Virus record (IMG/VR): IMGVR_UViG_3300011375_000006
Origin: an uncultured virus (IMG/VR IMGVR_UViG_3300011375_000006)
Taxonomy: Duplodnaviria; Heunggongvirae; Uroviricota; Caudoviricetes
Direction: 5' to 3' (one strand)
Length of the DNA stretch: 64,000 nt
Shown: positions 24,565 through 48,442 of the stretch, piece by piece
Layout of the letters: each line of letters starts with the position of its first letter
Position numbering within the stretch: position 1 is the first letter of the stretch
Made by a program: the position numbers and the translations under genes
Notes under the pieces: generated by a model
Told to the model about the DNA's origin: nothing
Seen by the model: the letters and a program-made list of their open reading frames with translations, nothing else
The model's database searches: none

Positions 24565-24852
24565 TCACCTGGTCGCCCTCACCGCTTTAATTCGTCTTAT
24601 GGAGGCTATGCGACCATTGCAGTCGTCGAGCGCATCAAGAAGCTGCGAGTTAAGTACCAGGCTGTCACCAAACGTCATCCCTTTCGGCACGTCAGGTACA
24701 AAGCAGTCAGTCAGCAGGCTGGCCGGGATTGGCACCTGTGGCGCTGTTACCATTTCGTACTCGACTGGCCTGTCCGCGCAACCCATCAACAACAGAATCA
24801 GGAACAGGGATGATGCTGCACCGGTTGTCTTTAAGTGCCTGTTTGATTTCAT
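24565..24852 (-). CDS. o-spanin (Rz1-like lipoprotein)
   Basis: Lipobox LLMGC; PASLL.DC..P; overlaps the i-spanin 3' end. Confidence 0.8.
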   Translation of the reverse strand: MKSNRHLKTTGAASSLFLILLLMGCADRPVEYEMVTAPQVPIPASLLTDCFVPDVPKGMTFGDSLVLNSQLLDALDDCNGRIASIRRIKAVRATR

Positions 24853-25144
24853 CCTGAAGCCTCTGGTTTGTTTTTTCGGCTGCATCCCGGCGATTCGCTT
24901 CTTCTCTGGCGATCTGATTTGTTTGCTCCAGTGCCTGAGTGAACTTGGCAAAGGTGTCGGCAAAGTAATCATTCTTGCTTCTGAGGTTTTCAATGCGGTC
25001 TGCTTTTGCCCTGTCCTCTGCAACCAGAGCCTGATTCTCTCGTTTCAGTTGCTGGTTTGTTTTGTAGAGGCTGAAGAGAAAGAAACAGATGATTACCGCG
25101 AACAGTAGCGGGATATAGTTTTTCAGCGTTGAGAGGTTCAGCAT
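24707..25144 (-). CDS. i-spanin (Rz-like)
   Basis: N-terminal TM, coiled coil, C....VP..V. Confidence 0.8.
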   Translation of the reverse strand: MLNLSTLKNYIPLLFAVIICFFLFSLYKTNQQLKRENQALVAEDRAKADRIENLRSKNDYFADTFAKFTQALEQTNQIAREEANRRDAAEKTNQRLQDEIKQALKDNRCSIIPVPDSVVDGLRGQASRVRNGNSATGANPGQPAD

Positions 25145-25764
25145 AAAACGCCCTCCGCAACTTTCAGGCGGGCCTGTCTGTCTGCAAGACCGTTAAGTCC
25201 GCCATTAATGGCACGGGTCATTCCCGTAAAGTCGCCTGAATCGGCAAAGGTATTGAGCTTGTTCGCCTTCCAGAACCATCCGGCAGAACGGGCAGCGTTT
25301 TGAGGTTCGGTCAACAGGTCAGGATTGTTTATCAGGTCCAGACCAAGCGCTTTACCACATGCATCGTAATTGGCGCGGAAGGTGATTTGCTTCAGCCCCC
25401 TGCCACGGAATCGCCATCCGTCGCCGGTCAGGTTGTTACCGTAGCGACCGCCATAAACGATATTCGCAATCGCCGCCTGTCTTGCGGGTGATAATGCCGG
25501 TTCTCCTGGCTTACGGCCAAGTTGCTCTCTTTGTGCTGCAGTGAGTCGGCCTCCAAAGATTGAAAGACCCTGCACAGAATAATTAAGTGATTCCTGAACC
25601 GACCGGAAACCACCTGATTCAGTACCAACCTGAGCGATAAAGGCCGCTTTACGCTTTGGAGTATCAATGCCGAACTCATTCATTGCGGCGACGATATGCG
25701 GATACCACTTATCAGCCAGGATGGCATTTAGCCCGGCCGCTTTCATAAACTGTTCTTTAGTCAT
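25138..25764 (-). CDS. Endolysin, glycoside hydrolase family 19
   Basis: FIAQVG.ESGG, ESLNYS, FRGRGLKQIT, INGG.NGL.DR. Confidence 0.9.
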   Translation of the reverse strand: MTKEQFMKAAGLNAILADKWYPHIVAAMNEFGIDTPKRKAAFIAQVGTESGGFRSVQESLNYSVQGLSIFGGRLTAAQREQLGRKPGEPALSPARQAAIANIVYGGRYGNNLTGDGWRFRGRGLKQITFRANYDACGKALGLDLINNPDLLTEPQNAARSAGWFWKANKLNTFADSGDFTGMTRAINGGLNGLADRQARLKVAEGVLC

Positions 25765-26080
25765 TGGCTTCCTCACCACCTGACACTTTGTTCAGGAATC
25801 GCTTTTCAAGAGATTTGATGAAGGAGGAGCCAGCCCAACCTGCGAGACCACATGCAGCACCCATTACTTCAGGGGGCCATGCGTAGTGAACTGCAAATAA
25901 AGCCATCGTCAGTCCGGCAAATATCGACACGATGAGCTGAAGGCAAAGGGTACGCCAACTGAACATCTCACCTTTGAGGACTTTATATGAGTAACTCGCG
26001 ATTGCGCCGATGATCGTCATGCCGAAAGCGATTAAGATCGACCAGAGATTGGGATCGCTTTTATATGGCATTTTGTTCAT
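25757..26080 (-). CDS. Holin with dual-start motif (Met-Asn-Lys-Met)
   Basis: Three hydrophobic segments, charged C-terminus, starts at 26080 and 26071; hairpin over the RBS. Confidence 0.85.
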   Translation of the reverse strand: MNKMPYKSDPNLWSILIAFGMTIIGAIASYSYKVLKGEMFSWRTLCLQLIVSIFAGLTMALFAVHYAWPPEVMGAACGLAGWAGSSFIKSLEKRFLNKVSGGEEAND

Positions 26081-26138
26081 TTCCACCCCCAGATTAGGGG
26101 ACTTGTTCAAGACATTCGGAATGTTGGAGATAGTCCAC

Positions 26139-26735
26139 TGAACAAATCCGAGATACGTTGAATACGTGATTCTTTGATTTGTTCGTGACCGGAAACATGA
26201 GCAGATCAGGCGTGAGTTGCGCTAACAATTCATGCCGCTCATTCACGAAGCCCAGCCACAGTGCTGGGTTTTTCTTTTTTGTAAAGCGCATCGCACCGTA
26301 GCCACAGCGGATAAGGTGGGGGTTTCGTCTGTCTGGTTTTTGATGGGATACGCTTTCAGAAACGTCGTGATGAGCCGAATGCGGGAGTGATTCGGCTCAT
26401 TTAATGATGAGAATGTGTGGTGGCCGGTACTGAACTCCGGCATTGCCTACCCATAGTGAATCAGTTTTTCCGCTCGAGTCCGGAAAGGCATGGGGAACTG
26501 TCCACCCGAAACCAGCGCATCAGCCTGCGCATTCACCACAACGGAAAGAGCACTGCATGGTTTTACCATTACATCCGAAGATTTATCTGGTGTAGTCAAT
26601 GCTCTTACCTGTTATAGGCTCCGTTTCGTGGAGCTGACGGCGGGTGATCAATCCGCACCTGTCGGGTACTTATTTTCAGCGTTAATGCTCGTGCCCGTGA
26701 GTAAGCTTACTCGTGAGAAAACTTATTCCCGGGTA
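26139..26735 (-). ncRNA. Structured late-leader RNA modules between tR' and the holin
   Basis: Consecutive inverted repeats with no credible ORF; includes AACAGGTAAGAGCATTG/CAGTGCTCTTTCCGTT stem and a tRNA-like fold (26416-26540). Confidence 0.6.
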
Positions 26736-26740
26736 CAAAT

Positions 26741-26777
26741 AAAAAAGCCCCGAGCTATTAACTCAGGGCTGTTTTTT
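26741..26777. terminator. tR'-like bidirectional terminator
   Basis: AAAAAAGCCCCGAG-CTATTAA-CTCAGGGCTGTTTTTT. Confidence 0.75.
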
Positions 26778-27034: not shown

Positions 27035-27652
27035 TTACGCAGCAATTAGAGAATTATCATTCTCTATCTCACGCTTTAACGCATAAAACATTTCCGCATC
27101 CAGTACTTTTTCGCACCACACAACACGCCGTCGACATTGCTGGATGTCCATGCCAGTGACTGAGCTAATCAGCCTGGCAATGTCTTGCGTGCACTTGCGC
27201 TCGCAATATTGCTTAATAGCTACATCGCGAACGGGGCTTTCCCTGTGAAACGTTTTGACCATTACACGCTCAACAAAAGCGGCATCATCTGATTCTTTGG
27301 CGAGAGCGATGATGTTGCTTACTGAGGACTGAGGGATGATTATTTCACGGGCTTTTCGGTAAAGGTTATCGCCGCGAAGCCCATCTTCCTCATAAAGCCG
27401 CATGACAACGTCCTCAATTTGCTTTGCCTTGTCATCACTCCACTGGCTACGAATCATCAGCCTGCCGATTACGTTAATCGCCCCACCCGGTGAATCATCC
27501 CCGGCGTTAACCTTTCCCCACACCTGAAGCATATAGTGGACCCATGCTTTCTGTCGTGAGTTGATGGTTTTCTTTGGGTGCTTCCATACGCGCCGGAAAT
27601 GGGCGTCTTCTGCAAAATTAACCATGTTGAAAACTGGTGATAGTCGCATCAC
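27035..27652 (-). CDS. Q: Late antiterminator Q
   Basis: Last gene before pR'/lysis; C-terminal HTH TQDIAR.I...RRRV.W. Confidence 0.75.
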   Translation of the reverse strand: MMRLSPVFNMVNFAEDAHFRRVWKHPKKTINSRQKAWVHYMLQVWGKVNAGDDSPGGAINVIGRLMIRSQWSDDKAKQIEDVVMRLYEEDGLRGDNLYRKAREIIIPQSSVSNIIALAKESDDAAFVERVMVKTFHRESPVRDVAIKQYCERKCTQDIARLISSVTGMDIQQCRRRVVWCEKVLDAEMFYALKREIENDNSLIAA

Positions 27653-44781: not shown

Positions 44782-45102
44782 ATGATTATTCGCTATCTCC
44801 TTGAGTCAAAATATTTCATTCTTTCGCCCGGCGACGTTCTGAAGTCGTCCGTCCTGTGCGCCGACCAGGATAAACAGATTTTCGTGATCTGGTATTGCTC
44901 GCCAGGCTGGCACGTCGCGGAGTACCTCTGGCACCGGCGCTGGGAAAAACTGACCAGCAATGTCTTTGAGAATGAGGCCTACGCCTACCAGTACGCGGTT
45001 GATTTCTTCATGGCCAGGCGGGAAAAGAAATTGCCGCCGCGAATGTCGTTTGACGCGCATCTTGAGCAGCTTGGCGTAAAAGTTCACGGTATTGCGCTAT
45101 AG
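44782..45102 (+). CDS. Hypothetical protein, probably SOS-regulated
   Basis: GGAGG RBS just downstream of the LexA box. Confidence 0.65.
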   Translation: MIIRYLLESKYFILSPGDVLKSSVLCADQDKQIFVIWYCSPGWHVAEYLWHRRWEKLTSNVFENEAYAYQYAVDFFMARREKKLPPRMSFDAHLEQLGVKVHGIAL

Positions 45103-47865: not shown

Positions 47866-48405
47866 AAAAAAATGCCCGGCGAACCGGGCGAACAAAAGCC
47901 AATGGGAGTTACGGGGTTTACAACAGAAAGCCATCGCGATGACGTTCTGGTGTAAAAAGGGCGGCATCAGGAAAGGATTCAAAAAAACCTGTGCCGCCAA
48001 GATTTACACTGGTACTGCGTTATCACGGTCCTAAGCGTGATTCTGTCGTGGGCCAGATGCTTATCTTCTGGTTGCCTCAATGGGCTGCAATTCACCACAA
48101 CGGAAAGAGCACTGACTTCGAGCAGACCTTGCGCGCAGGAACGACGATCAATCTCAATGCTTTTACCTGTTGCGTCCTCGTCTCTTCCGAGGTGTCACAC
48201 CGTACCGCCACGATGGTGAGTCGTTGGTTCGTGCTATGACCCGATGGCTTGCACATTCCGGCTACCCGTTCGGGGATAAGTAACATCAAGGAACCCCGTC
48301 GGACCGCTGCGACGCATGTGCCATACGCCGTACATCTTGCCGGTTACGTCTCCGGCGAGGGCTTCCACCTCTCGTCTGGCTTTTCCACGCAAGCGCGTGC
48401 TTGTG
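47866..48405 (-). ncRNA. ~540-nt multi-module structured non-coding transcript (candidate sRNA array)
   Basis: Bounded by a TTGACA-N17-TACCTT promoter and GCCCGG-TTCG-CCGGGC-ATTTTTTT terminator; tiled with stems; no credible ORF. Confidence 0.7.
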
Positions 48406-48442
48406 TTACCTAAAAGGTAATAATTACACCGTAATATGTCAA
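48405..48442 (-). promoter_or_regulatory. Strong sigma70 promoter with overlapping operator
   Basis: TTGACA (48442-48437), 17-bp spacer, TACCTT (48419-48414); GTTACCTAAAAGGTAAT covers the -10. Confidence 0.75.

Follow-up and report, generated by a model that had tools for sequence, protein, structure and literature searches.

A conserved RNA clamp that holds exchangeable small RNAs, next to a putative tRNA-type module, occurs twice in the genome of an uncultured virus of the Caudoviricetes, and the finding extends beyond phage lambda. The clamp, a 17-bp helix which we call stem A, is kept by compensatory changes, as shown below, and its payloads, the adjoining modules and the flanks are exchanged precisely at its two arms. 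With a probability of about 0.6, we read stem A as the constant frame around the parts of a non-coding RNA cassette built from modules: the transcript would be cut there to free the clamp together with its payload, and the arms would enable the trade of payloads. The window, as the whole stretch of DNA analysed is called here, is 64,000 nucleotides long (IMG/VR record IMGVR_UViG_3300011375_000006).

Stem A at two loci of the window and in phage lambda

On the minus strand, CAGTGCTCTTTCCGTTGTGGTGAAT is present in the window with 0 mismatches at 26531-26555 (locus 1) and 48090-48114 (locus 2), while shuffles expect 0.00 matches; even when 3 mismatches are allowed, the window has no third site. 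AACAGGTAARAGCATTGA is found at 26596-26613 and 48154-48171 (0.04 expected in shuffles), with a single-base difference (G/A) between the loci. An earlier note on this DNA had reported the arms at two sites with 25/25 and 17/18 identity; they were found at both, and both figures are right, the second because that one base separates the two copies of AACAGGTAARAGCATTGA. On the minus strand, stem A folds into 17 pairs, together with a bulged A and one U.U mismatch. The energies of the fold at loci 1 and 2 are -32 and -26 kcal/mol, respectively, vs -25.3 and -22 kcal/mol on the plus strand, and the covariance model of stem A scores 67 and 63 bits on the minus vs 23 and 28 bits on the plus strand. 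The minus strand is the RNA sense strand of stem A. The inserts between the 17-nt arms (41 nt at locus 1 vs 40 nt at locus 2) are mutually unrelated. When the 420 nt surrounding each copy were aligned, the flanking sequences showed no relationship either, the arms alone being common to the two loci. Fold and alignment thus agree with the proposal that the arms pair on the minus strand around unrelated 41- and 40-nt loops, and the enclosing pattern of stem A is real and unusual. The 25-nt arm is indeed identical at both loci, as had been claimed, but only 17 nt of it are stem, and its tail UGGUGAAU starts a second helix.

At locus 1, the late strand of a lambdoid prophage bears Q, a tR'-like terminator, stem A, holin, endolysin and spanin, in this order:

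27035-27652, minus strand: Q-like antiterminator gene, upstream of locus 1 (phrog_753, E 5.7e-67)
26746-26770, minus strand: intrinsic terminator resembling tR', upstream of stem A by 132 nt
26597-26614, minus strand: 5' arm of stem A, U followed by AACAGGUAAGAGCAUUG (pairing, covariance model)
26556-26596, minus strand: payload A, 41 nt, two small hairpins predicted (fold)
26539-26555, minus strand: 3' arm of stem A, CAGUGCUCUUUCCGUUG (pairing, covariance model)
26416-26540, minus strand: putative module B, in which UGUGGUG (26540-26534) could pair with CACCACA (26422-26416)
25757-26110, minus strand: holin gene, downstream of locus 1 (PHROG scan)
25138-25779, minus strand: endolysin gene, after the holin gene (PHROG scan)
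24707-25144, minus strand: Rz-like spanin gene, after the endolysin gene (PHROG scan)

The module B of locus 1 begins with GAAUGCGCAGGCUGAUGCGC, like that of an E. coli prophage locus (L245).

The second frame stands 21.5 kb away from the first, between the terminase and portal genes of an epsilon15/phiV10/SPN1S-type virion module and on the strand opposite to them. It belongs to a non-coding unit in which stem A is preceded by a promoter-like TTGACA and followed by a short module, then by a conserved hairpin, a DicF-like RNA and, last, a terminator:

48437-48442, minus strand: promoter-like TTGACA, present in phiV10 as well (seen by reading; a consensus scan did not call it)
48155-48172, minus strand: 5' arm of stem A, C followed by AACAGGUAAAAGCAUUG (pairing, covariance model)
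48115-48154, minus strand: payload A, 40 nt (read from the sequence)
48098-48114, minus strand: 3' arm of stem A (0-mismatch match, covariance model)
48045-48101, minus strand: putative module B, 57 nt, in which GUUGUGG (48101-48095) could pair with CCACGAC (48051-48045)
47959-48012, minus strand: DicF-like sRNA with terminator hairpin (RF00039 over its full model length; 27.9 bits, gathering score 48, E 0.0014)
47874-47889, minus strand: intrinsic terminator closing the non-coding unit

The TTGACA at 48437-48442 may be the start of this unit. The DicF-like RNA lies approximately 80 nt downstream of the frame, and a similar one occurs at the same place, after the tRNA slot, in phiV10, SPN1S and E. 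coli prophages. The conserved hairpin, AAUCACGC(N)UUAGGACCGUGAU at 48022-48042 of the window (minus strand), is also found in SPN1S (L242), phiV10 (L243) and the E. coli prophage loci L244 and L245; it follows the tRNA or tRNA-like module in all epsilon15-type relatives read, and diverged modules re-join there. The window is no E. coli DNA, its best matches in that species being approximately 80% identical. Hypothetical CDSs are annotated on the opposite strand inside the non-coding RNA unit of phiV10 (L243 1427-1678, covering the tRNA-Arg of this phage) and of SPN1S (L242 1049-1219), and these are probably not genes.

The lambda copy just after tR', to which the earlier note had pointed, exists, with the same arms and a third unrelated loop. 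In NC_001416 the arms lie at 44790-44806 and 44844-44860 around an unrelated 37-nt insert, and the frame (44790-44860) starts approximately 10 nt after the U-tract of tR'. Both arms of locus 1 are identical to those of lambda, and locus 2 differs by one G>A in the 5' arm. The lambda-like position, on the late strand from the Q/tR' region to the holin gene, is shared by locus 1 and not by locus 2; locus 1 and the lambda late leader agree in their arms, in the place after tR' and in the order Q, terminator, stem and holin, whereas the lambda insert is unrelated to either insert of the window. Few stretches of DNA have been studied as much as the lambda late leader. Even so, the hairpin is unannotated there, with no feature for it in GenBank NC_001416 or J02459.

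A helix kept by compensatory changes

For the covariation test, 127 distinct frames, diverged ones included, were aligned over the 17-pair helix. In this alignment 92.9% of the cells pair, vs 88.0 +/- 0.2% in shuffles (0/500 reach 92.9%), a percentage that is inflated because the frame finder, with its minima of 9/10 core pairs and 15 pairs overall, selected frames by pairing. When the partner strand is slid by 1-3 columns, pairing drops to 39-60%. Changes on both sides were found in 12 of the 17 pairs, amounting to 76 such cells vs 17.2 expected, that is, compensatory changes are above controls in frames picked by a pairing-based finder. By another route, a diverged frame, CAACGAUGAGAGCAUUG...CAGUGCUCUCAGCGUUG, was found at the locus 2 position in SPN1S and phiV10, where an A-U pair is replaced by G-C and the U.U mismatch by U-A. 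In tandem second frames, such as UAGUGAAGAGAGCAUUG/CGGUGCUCUCUUCACUA, the lower stem is wholly different yet complementary. Partner arms are nearly universal: they accompany 121 of the 122 copies anchored at the 5' arm, at a distance of 34-215 nt, and nearly all copies anchored at the 3' arm. Seventeen of the latter had appeared to be orphans, but the idea of partnerless 3' arms was rejected, almost all of them having a diverged 5' arm 27-98 nt upstream.

The orientation of the helix agrees with its being read as RNA. Variation in the stem includes G.U pairs, which are A.C mismatches on the opposite strand. The tRNA genes in the fetched flanks are on the strand of the frame in 26/26 cases (13 of 121 oriented loci). 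The nearest upstream ORFs encode Q-like proteins of four PHROG families in 19/76 cases and the nearest downstream ORFs encode holins in 8/73; the remaining nearest ORFs, many of which are probably spurious, mostly lack a PHROG match. Stem A always runs in the same direction as the late genes or the adjoining tRNAs.

The upper pairs, GAGCAUUG/CAGUGCUC, are nearly invariant and variation is confined to a few positions, a pattern that the finder partly forces. Recognition by RNase III does not depend on 17 bp being kept almost without change, and the near-exact conservation of the arms must therefore have another explanation. One tentative proposal, which we consider possible and less probable than the general frame reading, is that stem A serves as a slot for RNA cassettes which is recognized by its sequence: the invariant 8 bp would be read by a factor of the host or of the phage that excises the cargo, and the arms would allow exchange, with tRNA mimics, ribozyme-like folds and sRNA sponges as the exchanged cargo. 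If this were true, an integron-like market for non-coding RNAs would exist at the heads of phage operons, LPR2 of lambda (see below) being one cargo. At the gathering threshold Rfam has 0 matches in the window, and in lambda and 20 loci searched at E values up to 0.1-10 stem A is not covered by any Rfam family.

Payloads, adjoining modules and their exchange at the arms

The earlier note had advised collecting frames and clustering their loops, and this brought out a constant scaffold around many unrelated inserts. A scan of viral contigs with both arms, in which the gap was fixed at 20-50 nt, recovered at least 120 loci with at least 24 insert families. The search was repeated with the 3' arm alone, because a scan with both arms fixes the range of insert lengths. 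The 120 loci obtained in this way hold inserts of 27 nt (7 loci), 37 nt (21), 39-50 nt (38), 53-58 nt (19), 70-101 nt (15), 136 nt (1) and 170 nt (3), and 42 insert families were distinguished among 103 loci. Pooled, there are 163 distinct inserts of 27-258 nt, mostly of 37-50 nt. One near-empty frame (L473 121-159, plus strand) has a loop of only 3-4 nt, between arms that are A/U-shifted yet complementary by compensatory changes, which means that a frame can do without a payload. This frame, from a bacterial genome of 3.2 Mb in the family Enterobacteriaceae, is preceded by a terminator and followed by a DicF-like hairpin. Given the 27-258 nt spanned by the 163 inserts and this near-empty frame, there is a preferred size class and no defined length, contrary to the defined-length RNA that had been claimed. 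The locus L287 from Kosakonia, taken at one point for a large insertion, proved to be an ordinary 45-nt member.

Both payloads of the window recur elsewhere, and they recur framed. Payload 1 is enclosed by both arms in 14/14 viral contigs, in which 8 types of upstream flank and 6 types of downstream flank occur. The 31 exact 18-mer matches to payload 2 consist of 28 real copies and 3 chance matches; 28/28 real copies are between arms, although two of them have lost 1 nt of the 5' arm and another has a damaged 3' arm. Exchange was compared among 83 elements (3321 pairs) over 150 nt upstream, the insert and 150 nt downstream. Sharing of the insert only was seen in 108 pairs, of both flanks but not the insert in 5, of the upstream flank only in 16, of the downstream flank only in 11, and of all three in 15. 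In the pair L145 and L170, which are 97-100% identical on both sides, a 40-nt insert is switched for a 53-nt insert exactly between the arms. In L126 and L152, the insert (40 vs 95 nt) and the module (tRNA-Arg vs non-tRNA) both differ and the sequences re-join at the conserved hairpin. That the scaffold is mobile, as the earlier note had it, is broadly supported by the 108 insert-only pairs and the L145/L170 switch, in which frame, insert and flanks reassort at the arms. Tandem double frames on one strand were found at 44 further loci. Other contexts also occur: the 27-nt type lies between a CI-like repressor gene and a recombination exonuclease gene, and some frames precede ParB-like or tail genes.

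Most inserts fold into one or two small hairpins. In two 34-nt inserts, compensatory changes are found in both hairpins around a conserved linker. One insert family resembles an anticodon arm plus a T arm, and a T-arm hairpin under a strict definition is present in 6/163 inserts vs 0 in shuffles; an early impression that many payloads have T-arm hairpins shrank to these six. A 170-nt insert opens with a match to the type I hammerhead (L147 384-430, plus strand; 28.7 bits, gathering 34, E 0.005). No T-arm, anticodon-arm or hammerhead-like features are present in the two inserts of the window.

The simplest alternative is that stem A is merely a processing or stability site in the mRNA leader and that the loop is neutral filler. 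Payloads that are unrelated to each other, vary from 27 to 258 nt and can be nearly dispensed with would suit it, as would the lack of a significant match of either window payload elsewhere in the window. Filler, however, would hardly stay near-identical inside unrelated flanks, as payload families do (108 insert-only pairs, 14/14 and 28/28 copies framed), nor acquire compensatory changes in both hairpins, as the two 34-nt payloads have. The strict T-arm hairpins and the near-threshold hammerhead (28.7 bits against 34) also speak against neutrality, and the candidate product of the lambda frame is stable and Hfq-bound (see below). We therefore regard the alternative as unlikely, though the strongest of the competing explanations discussed from here on.

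The last 8 nt of the 25-nt arm are the start of stem B, which closes the adjoining tRNA or tRNA-like module (module B). In SPN1S, phiV10 and three viral contigs, the last G of the 3' arm is also the first base of a true tRNA-Arg, which is tRNA-Arg(UCU) in the two phages and in the contigs L126 and L185, and the position of module B at locus 2 holds this tRNA-Arg(UCU) in SPN1S and phiV10 and a 115-nt tRNA-like RNA in an E. coli prophage. The latter (L244 1669-1783), which has the upstream flank and the 40-nt insert of locus 2, ends in a UUGUGGU...ACCACAA pair followed by C and CCA, and is labelled in RefSeq as a tRNA-Gly pseudogene. Its acceptor-type stem is intact, and a T arm and an encoded CCA are present; judged from these sequence features, this RNA may still function in a tRNA-like way and need not be the remnant of a gene. 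In another prophage, a module of approximately 190 nt is closed like the 115-nt one. The stem B test took the 7-mer formed by the last 3 bases of the arm and the next 4, and looked for its exact Watson-Crick partner downstream. A partner was found 59-164 nt downstream in 36 of 109 distinct 3'-anchored loci, vs 8 in an equal-size upstream control. The pairs fall into three covarying forms: GGU/ACC (26 loci), GCU/AGC (8 loci, lambda among them) and GAU/AUC (2 loci); 24 of the 36 partners are then followed by CC, and 13 of these 24 by CCCA. The versions in the window are shorter (UGUGGUG/CACCACA at locus 1 and GUUGUGG/CCACGAC at locus 2), and module B is given as putative there because minimum-energy folding did not pick its helix at either locus. 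ARAGORN finds 0 tRNAs in the window. In relatives, true tRNAs by ARAGORN and RF00005 are beside the frame and never inside it, the frame itself being no tRNA. An STnc100-like match (L221 316-436, plus strand; 37.1 bits, gathering 47) begins at the end of a 3' arm, that is, at the position of module B.

The mosaic breakpoints at the arms, and the fact that the arms are inverted repeats, could be accounted for at the DNA level only, the arms being recombination linkers or else terminal inverted repeats that bound a very small transposable element. In L180 an HNH endonuclease gene (876-1388; phrog_99, E 1.8e-72) is directly upstream of a lambda-type frame, and the match of this leader to lambda starts just before the frame and continues onward; inside a frame, no endonuclease gene was seen. 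Neither version of the proposal predicts variation that preserves RNA pairing, G.U pairs included, or an orientation that always follows transcription. The interior of the element is unrelated between copies, whereas the members of a MITE family would have a conserved one. No target-site duplication was noticed by inspection of the flanks at both window loci and lambda, and no transposase was found in the PHROG scan of the nearest flanking ORFs. We consider an explanation confined to DNA very improbable. The repeat-spacer analogy drawn in the earlier note falls as well: the arms are inverted and not direct repeats, units are single or paired (two in the window, 21.5 kb apart), the inserts range over 27-258 nt, and there is no cas-like context. 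A closer likeness, by analogy only, is to integron gene cassettes and attC sites, since both have imperfect inverted repeats, a variable centre and exchangeable units. The differences are that the frame is without an integrase, that it holds RNAs of 27-258 nt and not genes, and that its helix is constrained on the RNA strand. The attC core consensus is GTTRRRY, which the 3' end of the frame, GTTGTGG, does not fit.

Release of the payload and occurrence among phages

Lambda provides the candidate for a released payload. Daniels et al. in 1988 (Virology 167:568), judging by the title, reportedly described RNase III processing sites in the lambda Q-dependent late RNA. In a preprint by Silverman et al. 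(2024), LPR2 is a lambda RNA seen as one band of approximately 63 nt, Hfq-bound and found mainly in the lytic cycle, the gene of which is close to 6S RNA in the late operon; PreS (LPR1) and fliC are its only RIL-seq partners there, and the authors suggest a sponge role (bioRxiv 10.1101/2024.10.31.621285). We take LPR2 as the trimmed lambda hairpin because 13 bp, the 37-nt insert and 13 bp add up to 63 nt (13 + 37 + 13), and, on this arithmetic, LPR2 is likely the product of the lambda stem A hairpin. In the parts of the lambda papers on LPR2 and on RNase III sites that were available to us, the stem is not presented as a frame common to many phages with exchangeable contents. L177 is a lambda-identical locus; among its public sequencing runs, searched as contigs only, one is clearly RNA, and its two contigs end short of the element.

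The restriction of the RIL-seq partners of LPR2 to PreS and fliC, and the sponge suggested by the authors of that work, raise the possibility that the payload is a base-pairing guide or sponge RNA which the scaffold presents, by a pre-miRNA or repeat-spacer logic. The lambda payload can form an interrupted duplex of approximately 26 bp with the seed region of PreS/LPR1 (-30.9 kcal/mol, z about -2.8). This duplex is, however, equalled by 14/1000 shuffles and ranks approximately 30th of 4328 windows in the same 2.2 kb, where other windows do as well, and for this reason the pairing is weakly supported. A loop match within the window, such as the earlier note had suggested seeking among phage sequences, did not materialize in either orientation: the longest matches (12 and 10 nt) are reached by 40/300 and 272/300 shuffles, and the window inserts have no significant match elsewhere in the window. 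Most payloads are, moreover, tight hairpins, some like tRNA arms or a ribozyme, with no length constraint. A guide function as the general purpose of the scaffold appears distinctly unlikely to us, more so than the loop as neutral filler.

Returning to the frame reading, we propose that stem A would be carried by Enterobacteriaceae phages at the heads of operons, enclosing a small folded payload of any of dozens of unrelated kinds, and that its 3' strand would run directly into the acceptor-type stem B of the adjoining tRNA or tRNA-like module. The transcript would be cut in or beside stem A, by RNase III in the helix and by RNase P at the adjoining tRNA-type stem. Such a cut would separate the leader from the mRNA and free the clamp-plus-payload hairpin as a stable small RNA, of which LPR2 is a likely example, and the conserved arms would supply the homology for payload trading between phages. 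The frame would then explain the mosaic hot spot between Q and the lysis genes. If it is a general release signal, phage non-coding RNAs could be found by their frame instead of their sequence, a likely origin and family would be at hand for LPR2, and dozens of natural payloads would be available for tests of effects on host and phage.

Known phage RNAs resemble the frame in part. The T4 species 1 and 2 RNAs are small stable RNAs in a phage tRNA cluster. The tRNAs and stable RNAs of phage late operons have the location and the co-transcription of the frame, and tRNAs need cutting from a long transcript, but stem A with its payload is not a tRNA, and the conserved part here is the frame and not the cargo. 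DicF is a prophage sRNA released by processing which itself lacks a constant clamp and swappable contents, and the DicF-like match at locus 2 is below the gathering score. In phages L and Sf6, tRNA genes stand at the head of the late operons (PMC8022706).

A published description of the frame was not found among Creative Commons papers in PMC and bioRxiv preprints, subscription journals being outside this scope, and the available part of the Pas/STnc100 preprint makes no mention of stem A. In phi80, which has a small RNA long known as an RNase P substrate, no stem A was seen on reading the late leader.

Among complete E. coli genomes, the 3' arm is present in 640/5426, at 678 places, 31 of them on plasmids, and annotation at the arm is lacking in 14/15 E. 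coli RefSeq places among those listed. With the covariance model at E values up to 1e-6, matches were obtained in 11/150 further genomes from the GTDB family, in 0/150 sampled from the order and in 0/150 from the class, in a scan that scored 31 first-look candidates per genome and may miss weak members. An exact 19-mer, searched in one genome per bacterial species, occurs at 42 places (L246-L287). At 20 of these the DNA is identical to that of lambda and sits on contigs that are small or have low coverage, in assemblies labelled as Pseudomonas, Shewanella, Oceanobacillus, Bradyrhizobium and other taxa, most likely as contamination with lambda DNA; several more look like chance matches, and such unrelated taxa were dropped as hosts. 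Among the genomes searched, the frame is found only in phages and prophages of Enterobacteriaceae in the GTDB sense, and the remaining taxa with the 19-mer are Klebsiella, Citrobacter, Enterobacter, Kluyvera, Raoultella, Kosakonia, Pluralibacter, Pseudocitrobacter, Superficieibacter, Rahnella, Rouxiella and Chimaeribacter.
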